A stretch of 60,287 nt of DNA, filler included, from Globobulimina sp. (GCA_003354225.1; 7 parts of 7 records of this genome joined end to end with filler, not necessarily neighbours in it); one strand, 5' to 3'. Numbered from the whole stretch's first letter, positions 1 through 51,851 are shown. Numbers and translations are program-made. The notes: generated by a model from the sequence alone, not told the origin.

Positions 1-17
1 AACGCGGCTTTTCTTCA

Positions 18-222: not shown

Positions 223-480
223 CTATTGGTTGTATAATCTAAGCAAAGGAGCTTCCAATCTTTTGCAATATTTATCAATTTCATACTTTTCAACAAAGCC
301 ATCTATGCAATGACCAATGCATCGAACCGCAAACATAACAACGGCATTATTTGAATACCAAAACAAAGGAATAATGTGCTCACAAATGTGCTTTGTTTGT
401 CGTGTATTTGTTTTGAATTTGCTCAAAGATCCAATGTATAAACAACTCCAATGTATAAACAATAAATCCTCTTTCTTCAA
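223..480 (-). CDS. Small hypothetical ORF, possibly a 3' exon
   Basis: 85-codon open frame starting right after a TTAG acceptor-like site; no recognisable motif. Confidence 0.2.
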   Translation of the reverse strand: MKKEDLLFIHWSCLYIGSLSKFKTNTRQTKHICEHIIPLFWYSNNAVVMFAVRCIGHCIDGFVEKYEIDKYCKRLEAPLLRLYNQ

Positions 481-842
481 CTAAGTCATATGATATATTA
501 TGCAGTTTAGTAACACCCATTGCAGCCGTTTTAGTTTTTGAAAGACTGGCGAAAACTGTCCAAAATAAGAGATTTAATTCGAAGATGATAAGTTATATAC
601 ATTTAATTGAATTATCTAAGAAACTCTCAGTTTTCTATAAGTTTGTATTTGGTTTATTCTATGTACATAATAATAAAACAATAGAGCATGAATCTATAAA
701 ACATTCACAGTGTTAAATTTCAATAATAATTATATAAACACAAAGACAAAAATTTATAGCAATTACATGATTATGAATTTTTATTATTACTAAATTTGAC
801 TTTACAACACTAAAATTAGAATTTAGTATCAAGATACATACA

Positions 843-3062: not shown

Positions 3063-3114
3063 ATATGATTGTCATTGTTGAAATTGTATTTCATTTAAAA
3101 TGTTTAACAAATAA

Positions 3115-3184
3115 ACTCATAATTTCTTCTTTTTTTAGAATCCATTTATAACTTTTCTCTATTATTACATATAAACTCATAACT
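3115..3184 (+). promoter_or_regulatory. Duplicated ~70-bp upstream block, copy 1
   Basis: Closely matches 4354..4423; ends about 60 bp before the ATG at 3243. Confidence 0.7.
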
Positions 3185-3242
3185 TTAATTTACTTATACT
3201 AATAATTTAACTCGATTAGAGTCACAGTTTCACAACAATAAA

Positions 3243-4322
3243 ATGGAGATATTGCCAGATGTAATTATTCAAATGATATTGTCATTCGATGAATATTGTA
3301 TAGAATATAGATTTGTAAGTAAAGTATTCAAAAACGCATCAGATAAAAATAATAGAATGAAATTAAAACAAAGAAAACAAACAATTAATGATGATCATGA
3401 AGCAAATATACATATTAAAAATACATATTTTGTTGATGGTGTTGATGCGGAATATTGGATTATTGATAAAAAACGTACTCAATTAAAAGATAAAGAAATT
3501 ACATTAGGATATAAAGGTCCAATTAATAATATTATGGATGCGATCGAGAATTGTAAATCTGGAGATACATTGCTGATTTATGATGGAAAATACAAAATTA
3601 AACATAAATTTGTCGGAGCAATCAGCCAATTAAATAAAATATCATTTATTGGAATGGGAGCAAATGTTATTTTTGAACAAATTCCGGCATTAATTTTTGA
3701 AGAAAATAATAATCATAGTACTATTTTTGTGAAAAATGATGTATATTTCAAAAACATTCGTTTTGATTGTGAAGATACCGGTCAGCTTGGATTAATCTGT
3801 GTAGTAGATAACGGTAACCTTTGGATGGAAAATTGTAAAATGTCATTTACTGGTTGCCCATTTGACAGGTATTGTAATGGAATTGTTATGCATGAATCGA
3901 TGGGGAAAAAACAGTCCATATACTTAAAACACTGTGAGTTTGAGGATCTATTGTGTGCTGTGTCTATATTTGCAGGAATAACTGGTGCGACTATCTTGGG
4001 ATGTAAATTTACAAATTGTGGATTCATGGAAGATGGATACGGAACACCAACTATTGCTGTACAAACATGGGAAGATGAATCTTCAATTTTTAAGAGCAAA
4101 ATTAGAATTATTGGTAATGAAGTGTTTGATGATGATATTGGGAAATGGATTGCATTTTGTTCTTATCAAAAGTTTAACGATTGGTTTAGTGAATTTGGCT
4201 CAAGATTTATATATGAAATAAAAAATAATTCAATCAAAGGGACAAATGCAATATTTACAAATGTAAACAATAAACCAGAAAAGCGTAATCCTAACAAGAT
4301 TTATTTGATGACATACTTTTAA
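3243..4322 (+). CDS. F-box-like plus right-handed beta-helix protein (FBXO10/11-like architecture)
   Basis: N-terminal ILPDVIIQMILSF...FVSKVF F-box-like motif. IMDAIENCKSGDTLLIYDGKY is a typical beta-helix entry, followed by repeated NC/HCEF-type coils. Confidence 0.65.
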   Translation: MEILPDVIIQMILSFDEYCIEYRFVSKVFKNASDKNNRMKLKQRKQTINDDHEANIHIKNTYFVDGVDAEYWIIDKKRTQLKDKEITLGYKGPINNIMDAIENCKSGDTLLIYDGKYKIKHKFVGAISQLNKISFIGMGANVIFEQIPALIFEENNNHSTIFVKNDVYFKNIRFDCEDTGQLGLICVVDNGNLWMENCKMSFTGCPFDRYCNGIVMHESMGKKQSIYLKHCEFEDLLCAVSIFAGITGATILGCKFTNCGFMEDGYGTPTIAVQTWEDESSIFKSKIRIIGNEVFDDDIGKWIAFCSYQKFNDWFSEFGSRFIYEIKNNSIKGTNAIFTNVNNKPEKRNPNKIYLMTYF

Positions 4323-4353
4323 TATACTATTTCTTCGTTGTGTACATCTGGTT

Positions 4354-4423
4354 ACTCATAATTCTATCTTTTTTTAGAATATATTTATACCTTTTCTCTA
4401 TTATTACAAATAAACTCATAATT
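4354..4423 (+). promoter_or_regulatory. Duplicated ~70-bp upstream block, copy 2
   Basis: Closely matches 3115..3184; ends about 70 bp before the ATG at 4493. Confidence 0.7.
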
Positions 4424-4492
4424 CCTTCCATTTTTAGACTTTAGTATTAGATTTATTTATCATTTCTTTAACAATCACAATAATAAATCAAA

Positions 4493-5704
4493 ATGTTATC
4501 AGTAGGAAAGAATCATGTACTTAATGGACAATTTAAGATTATAATGGAAGGTGATTACAAAGGAAAATGCGTCAGTTTGGTACAAAACACACGTACAGAA
4601 ATGTGTAGACTTATTTTAGAGATACCGTATGGTAATGTTGGTCAAATTATTACAATCACAAATGAAAGAGTTCTATCAACAAAGATTTGTTTACGCAAAT
4701 TGATGCAAGCAAACATTTATACCACATTTGTTTATCCTGAATCAGCAGCACAGACAATTACAATTGATGAAATTGATTATTCTAAATATGTAACATTATT
4801 TAATGAATATCCCAATAAAAAATTAGGATTATTATCAGCAAAAGAATTATTAGAAAACAAATCCAAACAACGATTCTGTTTCTTCGCAAAATTTATCGAA
4901 AGTGATATTCGTAATGGACATTTATTTATAAATGTTCTTGTAAATGATATTAAAGTATCGGTATTAAAATGGAATTATTCAGATACAATTAATTTTCCAG
5001 TTAATATATCATATTTATTATTTTTTAATGTAAGTGTTGGTGAACTTGGTGACAGAAAATTTATTCGTATGAATAAAGATTCCAGTGTATTTTATCAATT
5101 TGACACTGTTATTAAAAATAAAATTGTTGAGCATTGTGGAAGATGGAATTCATTACAAAGTGTTGATCAACGATTTTATAAGAAACAAAATTTGACACAG
5201 GTTAATGGTTTACAAGAAATGAAAATAACAGTAGAAGAGGAAGAAAAAGATTGTAAATTACCAGTAATTGATATCAAAGTGAATGCAGACAGATTAAAGT
5301 TTAGTATTTATACAAGACACAACACAAATGGATGTAACCAAGTGTCGATAGTTGGTGAAGAATGTAACAAATGTTATGAACCATTAGGTGATGTTGACAA
5401 ATCAAACTGGTGGCCATTTATGAACTTACAAATAAGTATTGGTGATGATGATATCAATGTAAAATTAAGTAATTCATCAATTAAACAAATATTAGAGAAA
5501 TGTGGTTATCTTGTTAATAAAAAATTAAATAAAATATTTAATGTATTATCAGATTCATTTTCAATGGAGTTAAGCAATGTAGAAGATAAAGTGTTTGAGT
5601 ATTTTGAAAATAATTCATCAATGAAAGCTGAATTGATTGCGAAACCAAGTGGTAATTCAAATTATCCAATGCAATATACAATTTCAAAATTTATATTCGT
5701 CTAA
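4493..5704 (+). CDS. Putative RPA70-like multi-OB-fold ssDNA-binding protein
   Basis: OB-like segment DIKVSVLKW...FFNVSVGELGDRKFIRMNKDSSV. Zinc-finger-like insert IYTRHNTNGC...CNKC followed by MNLQISIGD resembles RPA70 DBD-C. Confidence 0.55.
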   Translation: MLSVGKNHVLNGQFKIIMEGDYKGKCVSLVQNTRTEMCRLILEIPYGNVGQIITITNERVLSTKICLRKLMQANIYTTFVYPESAAQTITIDEIDYSKYVTLFNEYPNKKLGLLSAKELLENKSKQRFCFFAKFIESDIRNGHLFINVLVNDIKVSVLKWNYSDTINFPVNISYLLFFNVSVGELGDRKFIRMNKDSSVFYQFDTVIKNKIVEHCGRWNSLQSVDQRFYKKQNLTQVNGLQEMKITVEEEEKDCKLPVIDIKVNADRLKFSIYTRHNTNGCNQVSIVGEECNKCYEPLGDVDKSNWWPFMNLQISIGDDDINVKLSNSSIKQILEKCGYLVNKKLNKIFNVLSDSFSMELSNVEDKVFEYFENNSSMKAELIAKPSGNSNYPMQYTISKFIFV

Positions 5705-6196
5705 ATTAAAGCATGTAAAAGGGCATGCAAAGAAAATTTATATTATTTATTTTATGTTGTTTGTAGATTGAAATTAACTGCCAATATTTGATTGTAATAA
5801 ATTCGTTGGGTTTTCTATATTTCCCAACTTATTTGTTTTTTTGCTTTTTTAAATTTATTACATTCATTTTTTCATACAAAACATATGACTCACATAAGTG
5901 TTTATTGTGCATTCAAATTATTATTAATTATTTCATAGGCATAAAGAAGTATTCATGACAAAAGCTGAAATGCATGACGACGTTCTAAACAGTTATCATA
6001 TAGTATAGCAATAAACAACATACTATTACATTATAAATATAAATATCTAATATTTAATATTTGTATATTAACCATAATGATTATTATTATTGATAATCAG
6101 AAATTGATGGTTTGAATCCTGTAGCAACTCCAACACAAATAGGCATTCTCGCCCACCGGTAATAGACATTGTACTGCATTCTCCCTCTTCCTAAGA

Positions 6197-6367
6197 GCAA
6201 TTTAGCTGTGTTTGTTGTGAGATGCGCGATGCAATTTGGTTGTGTTTGCTGCCTAAGATTCGCGATGCAATTTGGCTGTGTTTGATGTGAGATTCACGGT
6301 GCAATTTGGCTGTGTTTGGTGTCTAAGATTCGCGATGCAATTTGGCTGTGTTTGATTCGCGATGCAA
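6197..6367. repeat. Tandem array of alternating 34/36-bp units (GCAATTTGGCTGTGTTTG core)
   Basis: Units start at 6197, 6231, 6267, 6301 and 6337 (34, 36, 34, 36, 27 bp), giving a 70-bp higher-order dimer. Confidence 0.95.
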
Positions 6368-6554
6368 GACAGTTTGCAGGTATTGATTTCACCGGTCAGC
6401 AATAGTGATTCAATGTGTATGTATGTTTGAGATATTTTATAGAAATACATCAACATAAATTTTATCTATTAAAATTTCATAATTATTGGTTGAGTGATAT
6501 TTATATCGTTATATTCAATTATGATTCTAATTTAAGATTATATTTTTAGTTTAA

Positions 6555-6773
6555 TTTTTCCAAATAACACCTCCATCACCTCCCAAACCTCCTCCTCAAC
6601 GACCAGGACCTCAACGACTAGGACCTGCACGACCTCCTCCATCTCCTCCTCAACGACCAGGTCCTCCACGACCTCCCAAACATCCTCCTCAACGAATTGA
6701 CACTGAAACAAATACAAAAGCCATAAAATATGAACAAGAAGAAGAAATTGGTGATTGTAGAAACAGATATTAA
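6555..6773 (+). pseudogene. Pro-rich coding-like segment, probable frameshifted N-terminus of the J-domain gene
   Basis: ATG-less open frame reading PPSPPKPPPQRPGP... Removing one A from the run at 6725-6728 joins it in frame to the ORF at 6730. Confidence 0.45.
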
Positions 6774-7148
6774 TGATGAGATACCAAGAAAAAGAAGAAA
6801 ACTCAATTCCTTGAATGTAGAATATTTTATGTCTGCAAATTTTTATGAAATGTTTGAATTAACAGAAAACAATTTTAACCAAACAATACTTAAAAAACAA
6901 TATCATGTTAAAGCAAAACTATTTCATCCAGATAAATGGGTAAATGGAACTGAAGAGCAACAAAAAAAAAGTGAACAAATATTTAAAATATTACAACAAG
7001 CATTTGATACATTAAGTGATGATAAAAAAAGAGCATATTATAATAATAATTCACATTTAAATGGAGATAAAGATAATAGTTTTACTTTATCTGAAGATGA
7101 AGATAGTATTGACAGATATGAGGATGAAGATAGTGATATTGATACTGT
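6730..7148 (+). CDS. DnaJ J-domain with basic NLS-like motif; probable N-terminal part of the helicase gene
   Basis: NFYEMF...KKQYHVKAKLFHPDK...FKILQQAFDTLSDDKKRAYYN with HPD intact; PRKRRK motif. The listed ORF turns into M/V/I nonsense after 7148 because the acidic tract is read out of frame. Confidence 0.85.
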
Positions 7149-8582
7149 GGTAATGATACATCTGAAAATAATGGTGATAATGATAATGATGGTGATAATG
7201 AAGATGAAGATGGTGATATTGATGACAATGATAATGGAGATGAAGACGGTGATAGTGATACATCTGAAAATAAAGAAAATGACATTGAATTTAAAAAAGA
7301 ATTAAATAAAATAATAAACAATGATTATACATTAACACAATTAAGAAATGGACCAATCGGTTTAGCAATATTAATTGGTAATTTAAGAAATGATATTTGT
7401 TTTCATGACAATGAATATATCGGGTTTAATGATGTTAGGCGTATTTATACTGCATTTTCAAAAGCAACATTAAGAGTTATCATATATAAATATGGAATTG
7501 ATATATGTGTACAAATGCTACAAAAATATCCTCAATTTAAAAGAGATGAATCACATGGCGTATTAAATATTCCATCATTAATTTCTCGTTTTAAAAACCC
7601 TCGAAGTTCAGTTGGTTTTATAAACAATATATTATCATGTATTGAAAAATGGCATGACAAAGAAAATGGACAAAAATTAAATGCAAAAATGAACAGAATT
7701 GACGGTGAATATCCAATTAAAGGTGGTCGTAAAATTAATATAAAAACAAAACAAATTACTGATAGAACAAAAAAAGATTATTTTAGTTATGAAATACCAT
7801 TGACATATTTACCGAATTTACAAGATTGTAATAACAAATATGGCAATTTTTTAAAGAATATCCATCGCAAACAAGAACATTTCGAATTTTTTAGAATGAT
7901 TTTAGGATATACATTTAAAGGTGGTATCAAAGCGTGGGAAATTATTTTTTGGTTTATAAATAATATGGGTGGCAATGGTAAATCATTAAATATCAAATGT
8001 TTAGAAATACCATTTGGGTTCTGGATAAGAGATATGGATCCACGTTTGATAAACAAAAAATCAAAAATTAATATTGGTGCGGAATTAAACAAATTAAAAA
8101 ATTGTTTGTTAGCAAAATTTGTTGAAACAAAAAATATTGAACCAGACGAAGAAGCATTGAAAAGATACAGTGGTGGTGATACTTTAAATCCAAGAGATTG
8201 TAATCAAAAAGGGTCGAAAACACAAGAACTTAAACCATCTCATTCATTGTGGATGATTGGACAAGACTTATCAAATTTCCAATTCGAAGATCAAGCTTTA
8301 CAAAGACGAAATTCTGTATTTCCATGTGTAACATATTTTAGATCACCTGGACAAAAAGGATATGATGCAAATGATCCAAATTGTATTATACCGGATAAAA
8401 ATATAAAGTCGGAAATTTTAGAACAAGGGGATCATATTTTAACATTTGTTATTAATTGCTGTAATGATGAACTCGGATGGGAACAATTAGGTAATGATTT
8501 TTGGAGTTGTCGACCAAAAGATTTTGATAACGATGATTTAAATGTAAACTCAAATGATTTACATAAATTTATTGCAGAGAAA
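7143..8582 (+). CDS. D5/P4-primase-type superfamily 3 helicase, 3' end cut by contig end
   Basis: D5_N-like motif KINIKTKQITDRTKKDYF, ILGYTFKG, Walker A GGNGKS, Walker B region LAKFVET, LKRYSGGDTLNPR, and DQALQRR arginine finger. The frame is open from 7143 with no ATG until 7515. Confidence 0.85.
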
Positions 8583-8682
8583 NNNNNNNNNNNNNNNNNN
8601 NNNNNNNNNNNNNNNNNNNNNNNNNNTTAATTAATTAANNNNNNNNNNNNNNNNNNNNNNNNNNNNNNNNNNNNNNNNNNNN
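8583..8682. other. Artificial contig spacer
   Basis: N-run, TTAATTAATTAA, N-run; 100 bp. Confidence 0.99.
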
Positions 8683-17243: not shown

Positions 17244-17343
17244 NNNNNNNNNNNNNNNNNNNNNNNNNNNNNNNNNNNNNNNNNNNNTTAATTAATTAAN
17301 NNNNNNNNNNNNNNNNNNNNNNNNNNNNNNNNNNNNNNNNNNN
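17244..17343. other. Artificial contig spacer
   Basis: N-run, TTAATTAATTAA, N-run; 100 bp. Confidence 0.99.
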
Positions 17344-25899: not shown

Positions 25900-25999
25900 N
25901 NNNNNNNNNNNNNNNNNNNNNNNNNNNNNNNNNNNNNNNNNNNTTAATTAATTAANNNNNNNNNNNNNNNNNNNNNNNNNNNNNNNNNNNNNNNNNNNN
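25900..25999. other. Artificial contig spacer
   Basis: N-run, TTAATTAATTAA, N-run; 100 bp. Confidence 0.99.
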
Positions 26000-31739: not shown

Positions 31740-34549
31740 TTAATTTGCCACTTTTAGCTCAGCAATTACAATATGGTTTGACGTTGATCCCCAATATTCG
31801 CGATCATATTCTCTAAATTCATCGATATCATCCTCATCATCGCTTTGATTGTTTGAGAATCCCGATGACAAATCATCACTGCATGAATTTTTACAAATGG
31901 TTAAGATGGCCACAAAGCCAATGAGTATAATCAATACCCACCACACAAAAAAAAAGAAAAAATAGCACGAAACAATGTCCGCCAAAGCCCAAAAGGGTGT
32001 AATTAATTGGTTCTCCATATGTTCTTTATCAAACGGCCGATAACAGTATTGACAAAACAATGTATTGATAGTCAAATGTTTCAATAAATTCTTATCCAAT
32101 GCATCCAACTTGGTTTTTCTTTGAGTTTCGTAAATGTTGAAATATTGATTCATCGCAATGCCGTGAAAAGCATGCGACTCAAAATTGTTGTTCTTGATCC
32201 TCTGCTTTGCGATGCAATTATAACAAGCGTCGTGATATACATTCCATTGCACCGAAGCACCGCAAGCAAAATAGTACGACAGCACCAACTTACTCGTACT
32301 CATCAAAAACGTATCACTCTTTTTCTTCCGCGAAGCATGCCATAACCGGCATTTTTTCGAACAAAATTTGCTAAAAAAACCGCACGAATTATAACACTTA
32401 AACCAACAGAATATTCTCCCAAAACATCGGTCGATACACGTCGACGAATCGTGGTTGTTATTCTGCGCCATATCCTCCTCAAATATTATTTTCTTCGCTC
32501 TTTTCTTCTTTGTACTGCTCCGGAAACAATTTAACACATTAAAACTGCGCAAGAAATGATAGTGTCCCGTCGCTAAATAATAATAAATATTCACTGTATC
32601 CGGGAAGAAGAGCGCCGGCAGAAAATTAGCAATGTGGATCATAACCGTGATAATGATGACAAATATGTTGAGCGGCGGCGCCATAAATCTGTTGCGATGC
32701 GACAAATCATACGTGAATTCAGCGCGGGCGTAGGCATATTCTGTATTTGCGCGGGACCGCACCCGTTCAAACTCCGCAGTCATCAAAGCAATCAACAAAT
32801 TCATGCTCAAAATGGTGCCAAACACAATAAAAAAGATGGAGTAAACTTGTGCGACCACCTTCATTGGGTCAGCCTCGTCCTCTTCGTCCCCGACTTTCAA
32901 ATGAGTCTCGACCTCGGCCATTCCCACCAACGACGTGAATAAAAACAGAAAGTGGTCGTAGACACTGTCGTTGTCACTGCCCGGATCGAGCAGATACGGT
33001 ATATTGTCGATGTAATACAAACCAAACAGAAAACCGATGAGAATTGTACCAATAAAGAAGCCGAAACGTACAATTTGTCCCATCATTAGCTCCAACATTC
33101 GGAATAAAATACCAATGTACTGCGCGGATAGAAAGACGCCTAACGAGCGCACGCAGAGTAATACCAACTGGATGGCCCAGAATGTAGTATAAATGCGGGA
33201 CAAATTCCAATTACTTTCCCCATCCAAACCGCCCTGTTTGTAAGGCGATATCCATTCAGCTTCGCCAGCTTTGTCGGTGATCCATTCGCCGACAATGACG
33301 GAATGGATCCGGATGCCTAATAACAGCATCCATAGGAAAGAAATGATGATATCAAAGTAATTCAGCAAGCCGTTGACAGCAAAGTATTGCCTGCCTTGGT
33401 CCGCAAACTCCAGCACTTCGTTGAGTATATAACCGATGTTACCAATCCACAAAATCCACTCCGAATAAGTGATGGGGTCTTGCGGGTAAACGGGCGAATG
33501 CAAAATGTGAATCGCGATGTAAATCAGATATGCCATGTAACATAAACCCGTGGTCCAATTGAAGCCCATCGGCGTCAAATAGAATTGAAAGGGTCTCTGG
33601 AATAACAATGTAAACACTTTCACCCAGTTTTGGTTCCCTTTTTCAATGTCTTCCGTGGGGTCTAAGAAGGCCGAGGCGTACCACACATGGCTCATTACTC
33701 CGTTTATTCTCTCATTGTTCAAAAACTGGATCCGGTCCTGTTCCAAGGCCAACTGCAACAGATTCAAATCTTTGATATAAATCGGAATATCCAACAACGC
33801 ACTCAGCAAATGGTCCGATTCGATGCTATTTATCTGTGATTGGGCAATGCGTTCATAATATTTGCTATACGCTCTCCACTCCATCTCCCGCGCCAGATCT
33901 TCATTTGCGTTCTTCTCCATAAACTCTGCCAAATACAAGGCAGCGGGGACCAAGAAATTCGATCCATCCATCACTTCCCGACACACCTTGGCCACATCCA
34001 CGGGGTCGCCATGTCTCAGTTCGCCGCGGCTTTCGTGCAAGATCTGCAACGCCAACTTATACGGCACGATCCGCAGCAAAATGCCCAATGCCTGCCACAG
34101 CGACGGCAGCTGCTTTGTTTTCAGTAATTGTATAATAAAATGTGCCATCAACTCGCCGTGTAACAGTAAGTTAAACGACTGGGCCACTTCTTGGAACTCG
34201 CGGGTTAAGTCCCGCGGTAAAAACGGGTCTCGTCTGCGCTTGATCGCATTCTTCACGTTCAAATTGGTGCGCGTTGCAGTACGCGACATACCGTGCCCTC
34301 TCCGCGGATTATCGTCAATGATCTTCAACGACACTTGCGACATTTTCGACATCTGCGGACTCAGCACACCGCCGAGGCCAATGGCGGAGTGCGAGTTATA
34401 AGCCAAAGGACTCATGGCATTGTTCGGCGGTATCCCTTTCAGAACATCTCGCATCGTCTGCTGATACGCTCGCGCAGTCTTTGAAATCAACAGTCCCTTT
34501 TCACGCGATTTGGTCCTGCGGGCTGCCGGTATTTGTGAGGCGTGCTGCG
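31740..34549 (-). CDS. TRP-family cation channel, 5' truncated
   Basis: Six-TM block, S6 motif SMNLLIALMTAEFERV, TRP-box-like EYAYARA, MAPPLNIF. Confidence 0.8.
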
Positions 34550-34649
34550 NNNNNNNNNNNNNNNNNNNNNNNNNNNNNNNNNNNNNNNNNNNNTTAATTA
34601 ATTAANNNNNNNNNNNNNNNNNNNNNNNNNNNNNNNNNNNNNNNNNNNN
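34550..34649. other. Artificial contig spacer
   Basis: N-run, TTAATTAATTAA, N-run; 100 bp. Confidence 0.99.
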
Positions 34650-34673
34650 TTACTCTGTAATTATCAAAATTTA

Positions 34674-35415
34674 GTGCGACGAGCAAAAGAAGAGACCAAT
34701 GCATTGACATTAGATCCGGATATTGGTTGTACGCAGAGAGAAACCAAAATAATTAAAATTTGCGACGATGCAATCAATAACATCAACGAGCAACAAATGA
34801 ATATTAAACCGGATGGTGTGTCATTGAAATTTTCTAATGACGCTATCTATGAATATATAGCACAGATTGGGGAGGTTGCTGTTGAGAGACCATTACTTTT
34901 ATTAGAATGTAAAGAAAATGAGACTCAAAATGTAACAAAGTTTGATTCACAATATAAAGGAAAAGATCTGGTGTTGTCTGACTCTGATACTGTTGTCACA
35001 AAGTCAAATTACTCAAATACAACTGATTCTCATCAGAGTGCATTGTTATTAATGACAATGAAGGATAGAAATAAGTATCATTATAAATTTGAAATATTAT
35101 CAGTTGTGTGTTATGATATTTGTGAGCCAATCATTGGAATTGTAAATGTTGCTGCAGTCAATGTTAACACGTTTGTTGGTTCTAGTGACTCCTCATATGG
35201 ATATTATTCATATAAAGCTAGGAAAGGGGAATTTATGCTCATCACGAACAGGTCCTAATTACGGGCAGGAGATGAAAAAAGGAGATGTAATTGATATGTT
35301 TGTGGATATGGATGCATTGACAGTGTCTTATCATCACAATGCAAGGGGTAAATATAAAGCTGCTGTTAGTTTTTATAAACCTGGAAATAGTATTCGATTG
35401 TTGCATACTGTATGA
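34674..35415 (+). pseudogene. Coiled-coil plus SPRY/B30.2-like gene fragment with a frameshift near 35225
   Basis: LVLSDSDTVVTK, IIGIV, SYGYYS in one frame, then YGQEMKKGDVIDMFVDMDALTVSY and YKAAVSF in the next frame. Confidence 0.55.
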
Positions 35416-35670
35416 TTGCCTTGAAACTGAATGTTTGATTTTTGTAGGTCTTGCAATAATGCCTACTCAAATCGTAAATATGTTTGATATTGCGTCTCCG
35501 TAATCATCATGGTATTGAATATTTAATATTATCTTAATTAAATATACTTATTGTTTCTTGTGTCTTTTTTAGAATTCGTTCTTAAAAAACCTCAAGTCCT
35601 TAGTCAATACCACTCAGCCAAGAGAACAAACCAACAAACTCAAAGAGAAACACTCTTAGATTTAGTCGCG

Positions 35671-37281
35671 ATGAGTGATAATTCAGACGATGACGATAAA
35701 ACCTTTGTCAATGGAACACATGTTCCGGATGACAAATTTCATTATCCACCCAACCATCAATTCACACCACATTATTTGATTATAAAAAGGGTGAAATCTG
35801 CAGCAAATCGTGGTGATTTAGCATGTGAAACCGTCGCTGCTATAGCAGCAATGGTTAAAACCAAAGTCATTTTTCCATATGGAAACAGAAAAGGTTGGAA
35901 TGAGGAATTGATTGGTTTAAATGATGCATATTATAAAGCATCACGTTATGAAGCAGCTCATCAAGACATATCCCCACCAATTCATCACAATATCATTGAT
36001 TTATTATCAAACAATCTATGGTTCGATAATGATTTACCTACACAACGTAAGAAAAATTACGATCGACGTTGTGAATTATTCGATGTTGACACTGCTTTGG
36101 ATTCGTGGCAATTCCCAGAACCACCACAAGAAGCAAGTGTTCATGGTAGAGATGAAAATCCGTCGGAGTCGGACAACGAAAACGAGAATGACAACAATGA
36201 TAATATTGAAGATGCAGAGGACAATGAGAGTGACATTAAGAGTGATGAAAAGAAGAATGATTATTACGCAATTCAAGAAGAAACAATTGAAATTGTTTCG
36301 GATGATGAAAATCCGGAAAATAAAAATATTCGGACATTATTCAAGAATTCAAAATATGTAAAAAAGCGGAAATCCGCTGACTATGAAAAGAAATTCATGG
36401 ATCGATTAAAAAATGTGATCGATTATCGTTCACATTTAATACGCAATATCGCAAAAGAAAGAAATTTAAAAAAAGTGACGTATTCACAAGTCCGTGGAGA
36501 ATTTAATGCATTCAATCATCGAATGCTTCAATTTTTAATTGTTTTTCGCGTATTTTTTCATTTGGCACCATCGTCGCAAAAATTTAGCCGTTTATTAAAT
36601 CTAAAAAACGATAAATTAAGAAAAATGGTTGTTTCTGTTTATGAAAAACAGTTTAAATTTTTATGTGACAAGAAATTTATTGATAAAAAAGGAAAAAGAG
36701 TGAAAGGATTTGATTCATTGGATATTATCCCAAAAGAAACATTTATTTTTCGAGATGGAAAAATTAAATTAAATGAAAAAAAGAGAAAAAGAAAGAAATC
36801 GTTTTCTGAATGGGATGAAATAGAATCCTCAAATCCGAAAAAGAAACGAAAAATACATGTTATTGATGATTCTGAGGATTCTGATGACGACAAACCACCA
36901 CAAACGCCCCCACCAAAAAAAAAGAGCAATGACAGCAAATTGGATGAAATCATAAGAGTTCAGAACAATTTAGCATTCAGTGTCGGTGTTTTAACGTCGA
37001 AATCGGAGAAATATAACAAATCTCCGCAAATACAATCCGTTGAAGATATGCTCAATTCGAATAAAAGAGGACTCGGACGGTGGAGCCATGAATACCATGT
37101 TAATAAAACAACGGTTGGCTTTGAATTAATTGCGTCAGAAACAAGAAACAATCAAAGAAACTCAAGTCATCAGCAATTATATCAAAAATTAATGAATAAA
37201 AAGAAGAAATCGCGAGAAATTGTGAGTGATATACAAGGTAAGTGGGTCTGTATCCATTTATCATGTGAGTCGCGTAAATAA
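35671..37281 (+). CDS. Element ORF1, unknown function, with acidic and basic/NLS-like tracts; probable exon ending at 37237
   Basis: Long open frame with first ATG at 35671. Consensus donor CAAG|GTAAGT at 37237/37238 just before the stop. Confidence 0.7.
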   Translation: MSDNSDDDDKTFVNGTHVPDDKFHYPPNHQFTPHYLIIKRVKSAANRGDLACETVAAIAAMVKTKVIFPYGNRKGWNEELIGLNDAYYKASRYEAAHQDISPPIHHNIIDLLSNNLWFDNDLPTQRKKNYDRRCELFDVDTALDSWQFPEPPQEASVHGRDENPSESDNENENDNNDNIEDAEDNESDIKSDEKKNDYYAIQEETIEIVSDDENPENKNIRTLFKNSKYVKKRKSADYEKKFMDRLKNVIDYRSHLIRNIAKERNLKKVTYSQVRGEFNAFNHRMLQFLIVFRVFFHLAPSSQKFSRLLNLKNDKLRKMVVSVYEKQFKFLCDKKFIDKKGKRVKGFDSLDIIPKETFIFRDGKIKLNEKKRKRKKSFSEWDEIESSNPKKKRKIHVIDDSEDSDDDKPPQTPPPKKKSNDSKLDEIIRVQNNLAFSVGVLTSKSEKYNKSPQIQSVEDMLNSNKRGLGRWSHEYHVNKTTVGFELIASETRNNQRNSSHQQLYQKLMNKKKKSREIVSDIQGKWVCIHLSCESRK

Positions 37282-37611
37282 TTAGTTTATTTACAATCTA
37301 TTGTATGACTTTGGATTTTTACCATGTATAAAATTTAAATATGCAAACGTTTCTGTGGAGAGTAACGTTTTTATATTATTATTTCTCTGTGTTTTTGGAT
37401 TTTTATAACAATATTAATTTTAAATATAATATGATCAATTTGTGAAGTGAGTGAACGTAAATTTGTGAGGTAACCACTTCAACATAGATCAAATATTGTC
37501 TGTACAGATATAATTTATATTGCACCATAAATTAATGTACAAACAGTAATGACCAAATACTGATTGGTCCCTTATAACAATGCAATTTATGTGAATCTGT
37601 GTGATATTTAG

Positions 37612-38636
37612 ATGGTGATTCCAATGACAGTGACTCCTCAAATTCAGATAAGAAAAAGAAGAGAACTAAATCAACCAAATTGGATAAAAGATATCAATCT
37701 GAATCAGAATTTTTATTCTTTATTTGGCGAATTAATCCCAAATCATTCACAGATATAATTTTAGAAATTATTCGTTATGCACATGATACTCAAATATTAA
37801 CCAGAGTCGATATCAACGCGACAATAAATAATATTTTCAAAGACAAATCAAATATTTTTAAATTCATTATCGAAGTTAAAAGACTATTAAATTTATGGTC
37901 TATTTATTTAACAACATATCGGAATGAAGTTATTATAAAATTGCGAGCTGTATACACAAAAAAGAAAATTCAATGTAAAGCAACGCGAGAATTTGAATGT
38001 TATGAAAGAATGATGTCGGTTGCCATTAATGATTGGACTGCATTTGGAACAATTATTAAAACTTTGGTGGATGATCCACATTTAGATGAACAATTATTTT
38101 TCATTTTTATTAATAAATCATTTGAAAAATCATACAAACAAAAGACATCGATTATTGTTGATATTCAAGATACCCATTTAAGGCAACAATTGAATATTGA
38201 AAAAATGAATGATGCGAATTGTGATGAATTGTGGATGCAACGTGTTTTTGGTGAATATGACCATTTAAAATTTATAAAAACACAGAAACGATTTGAGGAA
38301 AATTCAAGCAACAATCGGATAAAAACAAAGAATAAATTGACTGTTGATAAGATACCGAAATATCAACAACAATCAAAACGATCTGGCTTAAATCAACAAG
38401 AAAGGAAGGTACGATCCAAAAGAATACATACATGGATGAATCAAACACGCCAAAATATCAAAGATGAATATAAATCCGTCTTTAATGGTGTTTGTGCCGC
38501 CCATCATATGAATGAGGAAACATGTTCAGTTAAAAATGGATTAAAATGTAGAGCAGGCAATAAAGAGAGAAGTCATAAATGTGTTTGCGGTGATTCAACA
38601 CATACAATTCCACAATGTCATAAAATATTTGTTTAA
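37612..38636 (+). CDS. Gag-like ORF with C-terminal Cys/His knuckle region
   Basis: CAAHH...C...C...HKCVCGDSTHTIPQC pattern typical of DIRS gag C-termini. The frame opens at 37605, next to a TTTAG acceptor at 37611. Confidence 0.7.
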
Positions 38637-38767
38637 TGTAACAATTATTTATGTCAGCGAAACTATTGAGACTTTAATTATTTTCTTGTTTCTGACTTTT
38701 AATTTAAACTGTTTGTTTGCAATTATTTGGATTGATTTTATTTATTTCAAAAATAATTCAGCTGCAG

Positions 38768-38799
38768 AGACATGACATTTTGAACAAAATGTCATGTCT
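38768..38799. repeat. Perfect 15-bp inverted repeat
   Basis: AGACATGACATTTTG-AA-CAAAATGTCATGTCT. Confidence 0.95.
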
Positions 38800-38878
38800 T
38801 TCAGACTCATAATTGTCTGATTATGAATTATAAAACGAGAATTTCTTAGTCCCTAATTATTCTGCTTACTATATACAG

Positions 38879-40614
38879 ATAATATAATTCCAAATCTGAA
38901 AGAAATAGACTCAGAGTGTGCTGATTTACTCCAAGAATTAGTTCAATTATGGGAAAATCCGCCAGAAATTAAACAACATTTCAATATTAGTTTATTCCGT
39001 GAATATTTAAGTGATCATCCTAATGGTGAAATAGAAATTAAATTCATTGAGGATGGATATCCATTACATTTAAGAAATCGTGATCCAACAAAATTATGCA
39101 AAGTAGTATCAAATATAGTCAGAGACAAACGTGATTTAAAAGAAATATTAACAAGGATAGTAAAGGAAGCAAAAAAAGCATACATAACACGAACAGATTG
39201 TCAATTACATTATAATTTGAATGTTTTATGTGTTCCTAAAAAGAATAATGATACAAATTTAATGACTGAGATACGTGTAGCTAGACATGGTTCTTTTGCC
39301 ACACAAAGATCAGTTCCCATCAATAAATTAATATCAAAAGAAAAATGCAAAATACCAACACTTCCCAATATCCGTAAATATATAACCTTGCTTTTGAAAT
39401 ATAATTACGTGTCTCTTCGTGACTTAAAAGATGCTTTCAGACAATTGAATGTTGCATCAATTGATGCAAACTATATACAATATTGCATTTTTGGATTATC
39501 TTTCAGAGATCTCAGACAAGCGTATGGTATCGCTTCAGCAGCAGCAAATTGTCAACAATTTGCTCAAATTCTAATATGGATTTTACAAAATAAATATTTA
39601 AATACTCATCAAAGGGACAGAATACTTGTCCATATTGATGATTTTATTTTAGCTGCAGATTCCGAAGAAGAAGCCTTATTTCTTGCAAATAAATTTGATG
39701 AGATGTGTGATCAGTTAAATGTAACAGTGTCACATGCCAAGGATGAAAATGCGATCTGTGAAGGTGTGGTACATGGAATAGGTTTTAATTTAAAAACAAA
39801 ACATGTACACATACCTCCTCATAAATATAATGAACTATTAAAAGGGATAAAACTAATAATTAAATATCGATATGCAACGGGACGAGCGCTTGAATCTATT
39901 TGTGGGAAAATAATGCATTGGTCTCAACTAAGGAAACCTGCGAAGATTCTTTGTTATCGATTATTACGTTTAATTCACGAGAAAATCAGAGCAAATTCAA
40001 AATTAAAGAATAAAGTATTTTGGATACCTGATCCTATAATTCGTGATTTAAAATTCTAGCTACAATATGCGACATTTATGCGCAAAGTAACCATGAAATC
40101 AGTGATTCAACAACCTTCAATAACAATTTCAGGAGCGACAGATGCGAGCAATCTCGGTGGTGGTTTTATTGTTGGTTCACATTATGGTGCATATAAATTT
40201 TGTGATGAATCAAATGAATACGGTATCAATCATAGACGAATGCATATAAATTATCAGGAAGCGCACGCTGTGATAATGCTATTGTATAATTATCGTCACA
40301 TACTTTCAGGTCGTCAACTATTACTATACATTGATAATACATCAGTAATGTATAGCATTTACAAACATTGGGCCGGAAGTATAGATTTAATGGAATATGT
40401 ACAGGAAATTGTATTGTTAATGTGTGTTTATTCAATAGGTTTGAGAGTTGAATTTATACCATCAACCTTTAATGGATTGGCTGATTCTTTGTCACGTTTT
40501 GATTGGAAACGATTCTATGATGAAATTGATCTTTATAATTTACCAATGAATAACAAACAGACATTGCTTGAATACTATCCAATTTTGAAATTATTGCGTA
40601 AATATGACTTATAA
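38879..40614 (+). pseudogene. DIRS-type reverse transcriptase plus RNase H, interrupted by TAG at 40057
   Basis: VPKK, DLKDAFRQL, YGIASA and HIDDF (RT). ATDAS, HINYQE, IDNTS and NGLADSLSR (RNase H) in the same frame. The stop falls where Trp is expected (DLKF*LQY). Confidence 0.88.
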
Positions 40615-40823
40615 TGATTGACAGAATGTCTTGAAACAATTCAAATTCTCAATGTCTTTCTACGTAAATTGTACAATACACGTTTATGAGCCTGTATAGT
40701 AACACAAACTCAGTTGCCCATGATACACAGTAACACTTTGTGTAACACTCGCAGAAAAACCTTACACAAATATCAAAAACCTCTTCTTTTGTGTAACAAA
40801 CCAGGATCAACTTATAATAGATT

Positions 40824-42148
40824 ATGCGAATTCATATATTGTTAATCATATTATGTTGTTTCTTGTATTTAGAATTGCAAAGAATTTCAGTATGGAACCG
40901 CCCCTTTGCAAAACAAGATATTCGGATATCCAAAAGGATTATCGATGATATGTTTAGATCAAGACGTATAACCACCAAAGTTAACTATGTATCAGTATTA
41001 AAAGATTGGTGGGGTTACTGTATTGAAAATGGAGCAAATCCATTTACCCCATATATTAATCCTACAATTGCAATATATTGGCAATATGATAGAACATTAC
41101 GTTTAGGTTCGTGCAACTCACATTCAACGTGGTCATCAGCATTATCATGGTGGGTCAAAGCACATGGCTGCACACCAAAATATTATACGGATTTCTTCTA
41201 TCACACAATTCATGAAAATATGGTAAAATTATATTCAAAACAGAGAAAAGAACGGAAACCGTTCAGAATTCAATGGCTAATTCGATATCTCAAATTGAAG
41301 AATATATTACCGGACACATGGAAATATTGTACATTGGATGAATTGACATCAGCTTATTTATTAATTATGGCATTTTTTACGATAAGCCGCCCAGCGGAGT
41401 TGTTATATACGAATAGCACTGAAAATCCGGCATGGGAAGTAATTACAACTGGTTTACGATGGGGCGATATTTCATTACATAACATGGACAAACCATATCA
41501 TCGGAGATATAAAAAAATATTAATACATTGGTATAAAAATCAAGAATTTCGTGAGCAACCAAAGGAAATTTATATGGCTCCTCCAATTTGTAATAATATA
41601 AATTGTCATTGTCAAATTTTAGATTATTTTCAATTATATTTCTTTATTTTAAAAAAGCGAAAATTATTAATTCAGAATTTGAAATCTCAAAATTCAAAAC
41701 AATCAAAAACGAAATCATTTCAAAACGATTATTGAATTTGGATACAGATACAAATAATTACATTTTTGTAGGATCAAATGGAGCGATTTGGAGACCATCA
41801 AAACTTTCAAATTTATTGAAAGAATTGGTGTTATTGTTAAAGATTCCCAATCCTCAATTTTATCCAGCTTACAGTTTCCGCATTGGATCAACATCATTAT
41901 GTCATTTACAAGAAATTGATTTATTAAAATTAATTCGATTCGTAGTATGGTCAATTAAAGATTTACCTCATGTTTCAAATAGATATATAAATTTCACCAT
42001 TCAGCAACTTAGAATCATACCATTTGAAATGATACATGGTCGGAATCGACCTGGTGGTATGAACATAGATAAAAGCAAAGGGAAATTAACGACTTATAAC
42101 CTATGGGAAGGTAAAGTATGTGAAGATTTATTCATGTCAATTAATTGA
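40824..42148 (+). pseudogene. DIRS-type tyrosine recombinase with a -1 frameshift at about 41650-41700
   Basis: SRPAEL (catalytic Arg), LRWGDI, WYKNQ, then in the second frame YSFRIG, VVWS and NRYI (catalytic Tyr). Confidence 0.82.
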
Positions 42149-42685
42149 TTTATTTAAGGGAGTAAATGATAAATGATTTATGAAATCACAATTTTCTTAG
42201 AAGACTAACAAACTTATTATTCCAACTAAACTTTGTTTGGTTGTAATAATCTTGTCTGGATTACCAAAGCACAATATCATAATATGGCACTTATTTACAC
42301 AACACTCAGGGCACACAGGGAGTAGATCTTTATAGAAACGATTTGTTTATATACAAAAACACAGAGTTTCTACATTGATCAAACCGGAGAATAAAGATCC
42401 TAACAACTTCGTTTTCCGGATATTTACCCGTATGAGTCAAATCATTGAGTTTGTGAAATGAGTGGCCTTTTGTTGAGTAGAGTTCAATTCTCTCCCTTTT
42501 CCAAAATATATTTTTATGCATATTTAAATTTTAATATACTAGAAAGGTTTATAGCGTTGTTGAGCGAGTTGTTATTATTCTACGTCAGTGAAAATGAAAA
42601 AGAGAAAATTGAAGTGGAAGTTTTGCAAGTTTTTTTTTTTTAATGTGGTCTTGTTTTTAGTGCCAAACGTAACAAAATATCGATC

Positions 42686-43006
42686 ATGTTATTACTTGTA
42701 TTCTTATCCATGCTTTTTATGTGTATTGGCAATGGTGGCCCTATTATTGGATCGTTAATAGATTCGGATAGTTATAGTATGACAGTCACAGTATCATCAT
42801 ATTTAGTAGAAGATGAATGTAGTCAATGTACTATTAATGGCTTAGAATCATTGGACCATTTTTCAAATTTATGTAATCAGACATATGGATCACATAATTA
42901 CCAAAAAATGGTAACGTCGGACATTAAAAATGAATTTATGAACAGTCGGTTCATTGCAATATGTTTACATATTATTGGTTACGCATTTGTTTTGTTGCAT
43001 AAATAG
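42686..43006 (+). CDS. Probable first exon of a secreted or membrane host protein
   Basis: Signal-peptide-like N-terminus MLLLVFLSMLFMCIG. Confidence 0.35.
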   Translation: MLLLVFLSMLFMCIGNGGPIIGSLIDSDSYSMTVTVSSYLVEDECSQCTINGLESLDHFSNLCNQTYGSHNYQKMVTSDIKNEFMNSRFIAICLHIIGYAFVLLHK

Positions 43007-43172
43007 TTTACATATATAAATAATTTACGTTTATTAAAAGCCATATTTTTGTTGTTATTGTGATGTAATTCTATTTTTTTGATTTCAATGCGGCAAATGT
43101 TTAGCCATTGAGATGAAAATAGCTCTGGTCATTATACCCCACGGCGTAACCAATATCTGTACAGCTCATATC

Positions 43173-43272
43173 NNNNNNNNNNNNNNNNNNNNNNNNNNNN
43201 NNNNNNNNNNNNNNNNTTAATTAATTAANNNNNNNNNNNNNNNNNNNNNNNNNNNNNNNNNNNNNNNNNNNN
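43173..43272. other. Artificial contig spacer
   Basis: N-run, TTAATTAATTAA, N-run; 100 bp. Confidence 0.99.
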
Positions 43273-43432
43273 CTTGATAATCTGTCTCAGAAATTTGTTT
43301 ACAACCGGTAAAATTGAAGCTGTTATAGGTCATATCTTTAACAGAGGCCATATATCTACCAGTTGCAACTTCTTTTGGAGAAAAATGGGAACCATCTGTG
43401 ACTAATTCAGATATATCTTCTAATGCTTTCAT
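43273..43432 (-). CDS. hsdS: Bacterial type I restriction-modification specificity subunit, N-terminal fragment
   Basis: MKALEDISELVTDGSHFSPK...MASVKDM...FNFTGCKQISETDY matches the start of an HsdS target-recognition domain. The ATG overlaps an upstream stop (TAATG). Confidence 0.7.
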
Positions 43433-43474
43433 TATAGTGTACTGAAGGTTTTTATTCTGACATTTAATATTAGC

Positions 43475-45316
43475 ATGTCTTCAGCTCAAATTGTACCGTG
43501 GCTAAGATGTAGACATTTACTACAAGAGTATGGTGATAATATTGATGATATTCTTTGTGACTATGAGGCAGATATCCTTCAAGTTGTAGGTGGAATTGGA
43601 ACCATTTTGAAAGAATTCTTAAAACAAAAACCAGAAAATATGTCATTTGTATTATTAAATAATTTATGGAATTTACTATCATCAACGAAGCAGGAAACAT
43701 TAGCATATGATCCAACGTCGTTATTAACTTTACCCGATGATGTATTATCGTCAATAGCTACGTTTTTAAACTTAAATGATTTAAATAATTTAAATCAAGT
43801 TTGTTATATAACATCAATTGCAGTGCGAATGCCACACAGTCATAAATTAGCTGTAAATCAACTTAATTCAATCAACCATAATCTATTAAAACCACTTTCA
43901 AAAATAATTATTTTCTCACCTTATCCATCGCAGCAATATGATGCAATTTCATCATTTCAACACATATTACTTACACATAAAAATAGTAAGTATGAACTAC
44001 AAAGCCCTGTAAATTCCGCATTAAACATTGGAATCGTTTCTCGTTTAACACAATGTATATCCAATAATTATAAAAATAAATATGATCAACATTTTAGATT
44101 TTCAGCAACTCAGTTTTTATGCGATTATTTATTGTCTGTTGATTCAATTTATTTCCGCAAAATATTAAACATCGAAATTATGCAACGATTTGATGAAATA
44201 ATTCGAGATAAAAAAGAAGAAAATGAGCAGATTATTTGTATCATTGTAAAACAAATTGAATGTATAATTATTGAAGATTGTACATTGTTAATTAACTGTA
44301 ATATTTTCTCCTTTATATTCGAATGGATTGCAGTTTATTGTTTAGTTGAAACAGAAAAATACCAATTTGGCATTGGCTGTCATATAATTAATTCACTGAT
44401 GACGTTAATTGCAACAGCAAAAAATGATGTTATTAAACATTTATTGACAAACAAAAAATCAATATTCATTTTATTTAAATTGCTTAACATTGCAAATGGT
44501 CGCAGTAGAAACAGGACATTTTTTAAGAAAATACGAGATTATTTAGTATGTTTTGTGTTATATTTAATAAAGACATGCCATTCAGACTCAGTTGTAATGG
44601 ATGCGAATTGTATTGCAATTGAATGTATTTTATCAGTGATTGATGAATTAAATAAAACAGAGCGAGATATGGAAGATATGAACACATTGTCGCTCTCCAT
44701 TCAAATTATTAATTCAGTTTTATTGTGTGATGATGTTGAAGTTATTAAACAATTAAAGATATCGATATGGTGTTACACTAAACAAATACGACAATACATT
44801 AATAGAGACACTGTCGGATGTTATGTATTGTTGTCGTTTGCTTTGATGCTGCGGTATTCACAATGTATTGATACAATATTGAATGGTACAAAAGGCACAA
44901 AAGGATTAATGGATGAAATTATTGATATTATTATTTGTGGAAAATATGTGCATGCGAATACTGTCAAAAATGGAGCTTTATGTATTTTTAATATTGTTGA
45001 ATATGGAAATGATAAACATTTGCAAATATTATATGAAAATCATGGTGTAATGGCTGCATTATTTGGTTTAATGGATACTGAGAGTCAAAATGATCAACAA
45101 TTAATGATAGATGCTTTAAATTGTATTGATGTATTATTGGAAACGAAAATTATGAAAACTGGGTCAAATTATTCACAAAAAATGTATAAAAGAAAATTAC
45201 AGAATTTGCAATATGAATTAATTGATGATAATAAAGATAATCTATTCATAATTACTGATTCTCTCAAATCTTGTATTCAAACAATATCTGAAAAGTATGC
45301 TACATTGACTACATAG
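43475..45316 (+). CDS. F-box plus ARM-repeat (importin-alpha-like) protein
   Basis: LLTLPDDVLSSIATFL...LNQVC F-box. ARM-like helices such as ALNIGIVSRLTQCI and VKNGALCIFNIVEYG. Confidence 0.7.
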   Translation: MSSAQIVPWLRCRHLLQEYGDNIDDILCDYEADILQVVGGIGTILKEFLKQKPENMSFVLLNNLWNLLSSTKQETLAYDPTSLLTLPDDVLSSIATFLNLNDLNNLNQVCYITSIAVRMPHSHKLAVNQLNSINHNLLKPLSKIIIFSPYPSQQYDAISSFQHILLTHKNSKYELQSPVNSALNIGIVSRLTQCISNNYKNKYDQHFRFSATQFLCDYLLSVDSIYFRKILNIEIMQRFDEIIRDKKEENEQIICIIVKQIECIIIEDCTLLINCNIFSFIFEWIAVYCLVETEKYQFGIGCHIINSLMTLIATAKNDVIKHLLTNKKSIFILFKLLNIANGRSRNRTFFKKIRDYLVCFVLYLIKTCHSDSVVMDANCIAIECILSVIDELNKTERDMEDMNTLSLSIQIINSVLLCDDVEVIKQLKISIWCYTKQIRQYINRDTVGCYVLLSFALMLRYSQCIDTILNGTKGTKGLMDEIIDIIICGKYVHANTVKNGALCIFNIVEYGNDKHLQILYENHGVMAALFGLMDTESQNDQQLMIDALNCIDVLLETKIMKTGSNYSQKMYKRKLQNLQYELIDDNKDNLFIITDSLKSCIQTISEKYATLTT

Positions 45317-51751: not shown

Positions 51752-51851
51752 NNNNNNNNNNNNNNNNNNNNNNNNNNNNNNNNNNNNNNNNNNNNTTAAT
51801 TAATTAANNNNNNNNNNNNNNNNNNNNNNNNNNNNNNNNNNNNNNNNNNNN
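51752..51851. other. Artificial contig spacer
   Basis: N-run, TTAATTAATTAA, N-run; 100 bp. Confidence 0.99.

Follow-up and report, generated by a model that had tools for sequence, protein, structure and literature searches.

Conserved phase-1 splice sites in a Ngaro-like tyrosine recombinase retroelement and their probable use from a single coding donor

How does a retroelement translate its enzymes when their reading frames neither overlap the preceding gene nor, for the most part, begin with an ATG? The question is raised by an element of about 6.7-7 kb on the plus strand of a 60,287-base stretch of DNA assigned to Globobulimina sp. (GCA_003354225.1), referred to here in its entirety as the window, in which the element occupies about 35478-42148. 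It encodes, in order, an upstream open reading frame (ORF1), a gag-like frame, a reverse transcriptase (RT) with RNase H, and a tyrosine recombinase (YR), and it is a YR retroelement of the order DIRS in the broad sense, with a Ngaro-like layout. The explanation that best fits the comparative evidence is alternative splicing from one donor inside ORF1 to three acceptors lying in front of gag, RT and YR, and we consider this reading probable.

Window reading frames were defined from stop to stop under the standard code, and the splice sites were read from the sequence and recomputed. All features in the following list lie on the plus strand, and a slash within a motif marks the splice junction.

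35671..37237, plus strand: exon 1, ORF1, with its ATG at 35671, 522 full codons and one further base, ending in phase 1
37238..37243, plus strand: predicted 5' splice donor GTAAGT in the context CAAG/GTAAGT, read from the sequence and identical in the related locus L001
37238..37611, plus strand: intron 1, with a length of 374 nt and TTTAG at its 3' end; the terminal ~40 nt can be aligned with L001
37612..38636, plus strand: gag exon of 341 codons, the split codon counted, stop TAA at 38634-38636
38637..38878, plus strand: gag-RT spacer, the 3' end of a proposed 1641-nt RT intron whose acceptor TACAG ends at 38878
38879..40614, plus strand: RT-RNase H exon, 578 codons from the split codon, stop TAA at 40612-40614
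40615..40872, plus strand: RNase H-YR spacer, T-rich, the 3' end of a proposed 3635-nt YR intron whose acceptor TTTAG ends at 40872
40873..42148, plus strand: tyrosine recombinase exon, about 424 codons, stop at 42146-42148

The last exon base, 37237, is codon position 1 in the ORF1 frame, which places the donor in phase 1. At each of the three acceptors (37611, 38878 and 40872) the G of the AG is likewise codon position 1 of the downstream frame, so that joining any of them to 37237 keeps the gag, RT or YR frame, with junction codons GAT, GAT and GAA, respectively. An initial annotation of this DNA had proposed exactly such a consensus phase-1 donor at 37238 and three acceptors restoring the downstream frames, and recomputation bears out both statements. 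The open frames run from 37605 to 38636 for gag, 38857 to 40059 for RT, 40060 to 40614 for RNase H, and 40821 to 41735 and 41597 to 42148 for YR. As that annotation also noted, the gag and RT frames therefore open only 7 and 22 nt before their acceptors, CTAAT is present upstream of the RT acceptor (38853-38857), and RT has no ATG ahead of its first conserved motif: the first one, at 39262, lies 128 codons past the acceptor and after LNxLCVPKK.

Related loci were drawn from a metagenome scan that returned 63 of them. Sixteen (L001-L016), with 30-79% amino acid identity and mapped by tblastn, were used; the remainder (L017-L063), with 24-30% RT identity and a GC content of ~0.5 in the 24 that were viewed, were left out of all counts. 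Scans of genome contigs and of viral contigs with the RT alignment yielded no relatives.

The join between ORF1 and gag left its mark both in proteins and in DNA. Among the 30 ORF1 homologs found, 17 were aligned (the long ones and those reaching the C-terminus). All 15 that are unfused carry [Q/H]-G where the window has Q-G, and after it at most about 50 unconserved residues, the first of which is K in seven, L in six, T in one and I in one; this is as expected from read-through of a conserved CAR G/GT donor. Of the other two, one stops short of the site and one, P0098, is fused to gag. In this 1175-residue protein, which reads ...NDIQ-D-IDSTASN... across the junction, ORF1 (E 8e-21) continues colinearly into a gag homolog (E 8e-16). 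The window's gag exon aligns to its residues 834-1168, and the junction residue D is the one predicted by joining G to AY.

P0098 is labeled in EukProt as belonging to the foraminiferan Nonionella stella, a protein set that we take to derive from the assemblies published for that species. Those published data are Trinity de novo (meta)transcriptome assemblies (PMC8153729; for this and every other paper cited here, statements refer to the available part of its text). The taxon label itself should be held loosely, since another study excluded that data set from its searches.

ORF1 is part of the element: at the DNA level, L001 carries an ORF1 homolog upstream of gag and RT, with the same phase-1 donor as the window, CAAG/GTAAGT. 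The gag acceptor of L001, TTAAG, overlaps a TAA stop whose final base is the A of the acceptor's AG, and the gag frame is consequently closed as far as the acceptor itself. L003 pairs a phase-1 donor CAAG/GTACGT with the acceptor ATTACAG/AC; of its ORF1, the last exon alone was detected, by the ORF1 profile (E 7e-4). In L013 the phase-1 donor is A/GTTAAT and the acceptor TAATCAG/AT, the ORF1 being placed by position only because the profile missed it. Intron 1 has thus kept its position between elements whose RTs share only 54% identity. With donor and acceptor phase conserved in L001 and L003 and the junction present in the P0098 protein, the ORF1-gag intron is, on this comparative evidence, real. 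L003 has two additional short phase-1 introns, at ~1080-1270 in the ORF1 C-terminus and at ~2020-2076 in gag (donor CAAG/GTTAAGT), neither of which occurs in the window copy; this suggests intron gain or loss inside the retroelement family.

Do the RT and YR frames begin in the same way? The position of the window's split codon was predicted by alignment at every locus holding the 5' end of a frame (12 for RT, 13 for YR, 2 for gag), and the nearest AG with its G at codon position 1 was then sought. A phase-1 YAG stands at or near the predicted place in 11 of the 12 RT loci, exactly in five, one codon away in three, four codons away in L016 and eight in L009 and L013. All 13 YR loci possess one, with eight exact, four displaced by one codon and L010 by five. 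Both gag loci agree by alignment, as do L003 and L013 by eye. Taking all exon starts together, 15 of 27 are exact and 22 of 27 fall within one codon, in typical acceptor contexts such as tatacag, tacatag, gttttag and cacacag. The frames themselves open 0-8 codons before the acceptor in 14/27 cases, and the YR frame opens just 1-2 codons before it in L014, L002, L001 and L003. These data support the view that conserved phase-1 acceptors mark the beginning of the RT and YR frames down to ~30% identity, most of these frames having no usable ATG there. The conservation of donor, acceptors and phase across related loci, which the initial annotation had named as a check, holds (gag 2/2, RT 11/12, YR 13/13). 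Such conserved phase implies that translation would cross the junction from an exon ending in phase 1, and it argues against both spliced-leader trans-splicing and independent initiation.

A skeptical reader might attribute the in-phase AGs to chance in an AT-rich, decayed element, given that TAG and CAG strings are plentiful in AT-rich DNA and that the window copy is damaged. However, YA/G with its G in the first codon position is found at only 304 of 11339 codon junctions in the coding DNA of the family (2.7%), and the chance per locus is 0.28 even at a tolerance of 12 codons, whereas the observed AGs are conserved over loci spanning 30-79% identity and a GC content of 18-60%. The chance reading is already contradicted by these figures and by P0098, which joins ORF1 to gag at the predicted junction, and we regard it as hardly credible.

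If the acceptors are genuine, which donor do the RT and YR acceptors use? The coding segments contain 95 phase-1 GTs in the window and 87 in L001, and among them the ORF1 donor is the sole 8/8 match to AG/GTAAGT. The next-best sites score 6/8, and no 6/8 site is common to the two copies. The ORF1 donor is therefore the best candidate partner of the RT and YR acceptors; as the only conserved, consensus-like phase-1 donor found, it is the one with which we infer that they pair. Persistence of the intron points the same way: an intron in such an element would be lost unless unspliced RNA were the template and the splice signals were needed, and the retention of intron 1 hence favors the ORF1 donor.

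A different partner, namely a donor internal to gag, a short exon concealed within one of the spacers, or a leader exon at the 5' end, would give the enzymes a different or much shorter shared N-terminus. The gag-internal phase-1 intron of L003 lends this some substance, as it indicates several phase-1 donors in some lineages. Yet gag is uninterrupted in both the window and L001, where its best phase-1 donor reaches only 5/8, at positions not shared between them. The gag-RT and RNase H-YR spacers cannot be aligned between the two copies, even though the flanking exons are 64-77% identical in DNA, and alignment with L001 becomes possible again only 8 nt ahead of the RT acceptor and, at gag, ~40 nt ahead. 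Unconserved spacers make a hidden exon within them unlikely, and inspection by eye of the window's gag-RT spacer revealed short ATG-started ORFs only, with no good phase-1 donor. The ORF1 donor, by comparison, is the one feature retained in all 15 unfused homologs, and on this balance we judge a different partner unlikely.

Serial constitutive splicing into one giant polyprotein, ORF1-gag-RT-RNase H-YR, would instead require donors ahead of the gag and RNase H stops. The window does hold C/GTAAAT five codons before the RNase H stop, and a CGT codon is found there in L001, L005, L006 and L011 as well. Nevertheless, 6 of 15 RNase H ends have no phase-1 GT within their last 22 codons, with scattered positions in the rest. 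At gag ends the phase-1 GTs are part of unremarkable Ser, Cys and Gly codons; the last Cys codon contains the GT closest to the stop, and L001 has TGC there. No conserved donor was found before either the gag or the RNase H stop, and P0098 terminates with the gag C-terminus, a few residues past a knuckle motif. A polyprotein of this kind is accordingly very improbable.

Splicing from the ORF1 donor to each of the three acceptors would then operate as follows. A single 5' promoter would yield a full-length RNA that is kept unspliced to template reverse transcription. Part of this RNA would be spliced from the phase-1 donor (37237/37238) to one of the three phase-1 acceptors, giving three mRNAs that would encode ORF1-gag (863 amino acids), ORF1-RT/RNase H (~1100) and ORF1-YR (~946) with a common 522-residue module. 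This module might play the role of the Gag part in Gag-Pol by bringing the enzymes to the same particle or RNA, and the choice of acceptor would set the ratio of structural protein to enzyme. The single promoter and the role of the module are what we infer from the arrangement as a whole. A candidate promoter or 5'-end signal is a 48-nt block at 35475-35522, ~150 nt before the ORF1 ATG, that is 85% identical to L001 while its flanks differ; together with the unalignable spacers, this conserved upstream block fits a single upstream promoter and intron-like spacers. The initial annotation had placed one shared module of ~520 residues on three alternative C-termini. For gag this stands, on the splice sites and P0098; for RT and YR the acceptors prove to be conserved and the pairing with the ORF1 donor is deduced.

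Several observations weigh against this reading. The junctions 37237-38879 and 37237-40873 are predicted from DNA comparison, and the introns they imply are 1.6 and 3.6 kb long, compared with 216-421 nt for the introns seen in the family. No ORF1-RT or ORF1-YR fusion occurs among the 30 ORF1 matches. Two weak searches gave no fusion either: one of RT against longer proteins found none, and one of the P0098 ORF1 region against proteins of 646-2057 residues returned only P0098 itself; no RT of the family from a transcriptome source came up at all. With at least one further phase-1 donor inside gag, L003 leaves the upstream partner ambiguous in that lineage, and L015 shows no clean RT acceptor at the predicted place, its nearest AG following an A and being ambiguous. 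The loci L005, L006 and L011 are closely related to one another, so the independent lineages number ~9 or 10 rather than 16. Both copies on which the donor comparison draws are damaged: the window copy as described below, and L001 by a frameshift in ORF1 at ~1925-1931 (tblastn frames 3, then 2). Finally, between the frame opening and ten codons beyond the acceptor, an ATG occurs in 3 of 12 RT and 4 of 13 YR frames. One of these is the window's own YR frame, with an ATG at 40824, 16 codons before the acceptor, that the initial annotation did not mention. Frames that could start from an ATG of their own, which that annotation had set against its proposal, are hence uncommon (18 of 25 frames have no such ATG) and still present, in 7/25.

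Another possibility is that only intron 1 is functional, so that ORF1-gag would be one gene with a lone intron, and that RT-RNase H and YR are expressed through internal promoters in the spacers, by initiating internally or at non-AUG codons, or by re-initiating on the unspliced RNA. It gains from the ATGs near frame starts and from the purely comparative basis of the long splices, and the available text of the surveys PMC3266345, PMC3783388 and PMC6681497 does not address how the non-overlapping ORFs of Ngaro and VIPER are expressed. It leaves unexplained, however, why a phase-1 AG marks the start of conservation in 24 of 25 RT and YR frames against the background given above, and why 12 of the 25 open just 1-8 codons upstream. 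Nor do the spacers of the window and L001 share a conserved promoter-like block, and the first ATG of the window's RT lies past conserved motifs. Expression by such routes therefore strikes us as improbable, and alternative splicing from the ORF1 donor is retained as the preferred reading.

The encoded proteins agree with the assignment of the element. RT matches Pfam RVT_1 (E 1.1e-6; 29.0 bits, just below the cut-off of 29.6) and RNase H matches RT_RNaseH (E 3.2e-4, just below the curated cut-off). The RT-RNase H segment has 85 homologs with E-values down to 5e-188, mostly proteins of 570-600 residues on short contigs; many bear a precomputed PF00078, and PF17917 or PF13456 are also carried. 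The RT motifs are invariant in alignment A1. The RNase H frame closes 184 codons beyond RT and shows no other Pfam domain, and no methyltransferase, protease or DDE integrase was found in the element.

Pfam gave no matches for YR, ORF1 or gag. A profile search of YR against PDB sequences produced a single weak match, the integrase 3nkh (E 0.016). By contrast with the window's split frame, the YR homolog in L002 is intact, and its AlphaFold model (from alignment A3; pLDDT 71.9) matches Cre recombinase over ~360 columns (E 3.7e-5, probability 1.00, TM 0.46/0.59), followed by Xer and lambda Int. Inspection of A3 by eye shows the SRPxE arginine, [H/Y]-x-x-[R/K], W and the C-terminal Y in register. 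Judged by this model and alignment, the last ORF is a tyrosine recombinase.

The gag C-terminus ends in a Cys/His knuckle-like motif common to L001, L004, L005, L013 and P0098; a search of gag in the ESM Atlas gave no named lead. The ORF1 model contains two confidently folded domains, the fold of neither being matched. Foldseek against the PDB returned no match at E <= 0.001, and the VIA wide search reached a best Z of 4.5, with generic helical matches at residues 223-391 only; the N-terminal domain was barely probed.

The window copy is damaged: it has a frameshift and also a stop codon whose reading is in dispute, neither of which appeared in the initial annotation. An in-frame TAG at 40057-40059 lies between RT and RNase H, where 22 of 22 aligned relatives have Trp. 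Both contigs of the run X1 that cover 40058 read G instead of A, so the stop is not confirmed by the sole run that covers the stretch. A frameshift at ~41650-41700 divides YR, which L002, L004, L006, L011, L012 and L014 encode in a single frame. A contig over 41096-41717 is identical to the window, which confirms the frameshift region. Contigs of X1-X3 (X1 being a sequencing run of unspecified type) show no joint at the three predicted junctions, which tells nothing for or against splicing. X1 also includes a diverged copy in which the middle of intron 1 is replaced by 257 other letters, with the flanking exons kept.

The remaining features of the element, and the joints of the window, are as follows.

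35478..35670, plus strand: 5' end region and 5' untranslated region, delimited by blastn and by alignment with L001
38768..38799, plus strand: perfect hairpin of the gag-RT spacer with a 14-bp stem and the loop GAAC, 79 nt upstream of the RT acceptor
42149..42640, plus strand: 3' region of the element, its outer end undefined
8583-8682, 17244-17343, 25900-25999, 34550-34649, 43173-43272 and 51752-51851: linker blocks, each consisting of 44 N, TTAATTAATTAA and 44 N

Homology between the window and L001 begins at ~35478, and upstream of that point the two copies are unrelated by blastn. No direct or inverted repeats linking the 5' and 3' regions were found within 34650-43172, where the 3' end is undefined; Smith-Waterman scores between the two regions lie at the shuffle median, and no related locus holds both element ends. 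Contig depth peaks at 35400-35633, 38676-38909 and 42186-42400. The last of these is multi-copy in X1 (summed depth 51, rising to ~150 near 42362, versus 8-30 in the coding interior) and may represent a terminal repeat or solo remnants. Positions 42325-42380 form an imperfect palindrome of 56 nt. The bin around the hairpin (38676-38909) has the highest summed contig depth in X1. As a family feature the hairpin was rejected, its counterparts elsewhere being weak (9 bp in L001 and L003) or absent.

The window consists of seven pieces of ~8.6 kb each, and pieces on either side of a linker are perhaps not genomic neighbors. The whole finding falls inside the piece 34650-43172, GC content around the element is ~30%, and no second copy of the element was found in the window. 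Upstream, a gene with a SPRY domain (Pfam SPRY, 2.2e-5) is represented by its 3' part, at 34650-35415 on the plus strand. This part occupies two overlapping frames, 34602-35258 and 35146-35415, in what looks like a one-base frameshift and not an intron, and it ends ~60 nt before the 5' homology boundary of the element. Neighboring pieces carry intron-less ORFs of 953 residues (31740-34601, minus strand; Ion_trans domain, 2.8e-10) and 630 residues (43424-45316, plus strand; weak F-box-like match, 1.2e-3). The first piece, 1-8582, has 25% GC and long same-strand ORFs of 761, 377, 405 and 495 residues, and tblastn detected no relationship between it and the element.

What would such an arrangement mean? 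Retroviruses and LTR (long terminal repeat) retrotransposons tie their enzymes to Gag through frameshifting, read-through or a single ORF. A protist YR clade, widespread among metagenome contigs, may have exchanged frameshifting, read-through and overlapping ORFs for spliceosomal choice among alternative 3' splice sites, fusing a module of ~520 residues in turn to a nucleocapsid-like domain, to RT-RNase H and to a recombinase; stated this broadly, we regard the claim as evenly balanced between right and wrong. If it is true, the host spliceosome would set the stoichiometry of the three proteins, and the introns would survive retrotransposition because only unspliced RNA is copied, a rare example of selection keeping introns in an element that replicates through RNA. 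The extra introns of L003 would mean that such elements gain or lose introns. A donor inside a coding region would add a further solution to the making of Gag-enzyme fusions, and it would offer a testable idea for how pol and YR are translated when their ORFs neither overlap nor begin with an ATG. The same logic might account for expression in Ngaro and VIPER, whose ORFs likewise do not overlap.

Alternative splicing that fuses a structural N-terminal module with RT and with the recombinase appears to be undescribed. A literature search by titles and the starts of abstracts turned up nothing on natural splicing of YR elements, and in the available text of the surveys PMC3266345, PMC3783388 and PMC6681497 neither "intron" nor "splic" appears in connection with them. 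The introns mentioned in the available part of a study on DIRS-1 are engineered markers (PMC7192593).

Among known systems, the broad DIRS features are all present: an RT, RNase H following it, and a tyrosine recombinase in place of a DDE integrase. The label "DIRS-like" given in the initial annotation is thus apt for a YR retroelement with these three enzymes and too generous in the strict sense of DIRS1-like elements. Those, as described, carry a methyltransferase after RNase H and inverted terminal repeats with internal complementary regions, and their pol and YR ORFs often overlap (PMC3266345). With Dictyostelium DIRS-1 the element shares RT, RNase H, the recombinase instead of a DDE integrase, and the lack of a protease; it differs in having no methyltransferase domain and no overlapping ORFs, and inverted terminal repeats were not found.

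Ngaro is closer, with the order gag, RT/RNase H, YR, no methyltransferase and non-overlapping ORFs, all of which the element shares; VIPER has the same type of layout, likewise without methyltransferase or ORF overlaps (PMC3266345, PMC8547959). This likeness is one of layout and published descriptions. The defining feature of Ngaro is a set of split direct repeats, A1-[ORFs]-B1A2B2, of which the 8.5-kb piece yielded none. Unlike Ngaro, moreover, the element has an ORF1 plus gag of ~860 residues that is split by an intron, and its pol and YR frames begin at splice acceptors.

Outside the YR elements, foamy viruses resemble the element in that Pol comes from its own spliced mRNA, with no frameshift or read-through (PMC8003144). 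Foamy virus Pol is independent of Gag, however, whereas the element's donor lies in a coding region and each enzyme would be fused to 522 residues of a structural ORF. In Ty1/copia elements, alternative splicing sets the ratio of structural to catalytic protein, through shGAG in Arabidopsis EVD (PMC5580714) and likewise in BARE (PMC3735527). There, a stretch of pol is spliced out to leave an RNA that encodes Gag alone, and Pol stays on the unspliced polyprotein ORF, whereas in the element each module would need a splice. Retroviral subgenomic mRNAs arise from one major 5' splice site and several 3' sites, with unspliced RNA kept as the genome. The parallel with the proposed scheme is close, in that one donor, several alternative acceptors and an unspliced genomic RNA would serve both; the retroviral major donor, however, lies in a non-coding leader and its products have their own starts, whereas the conserved phase in the element implies fusion proteins.

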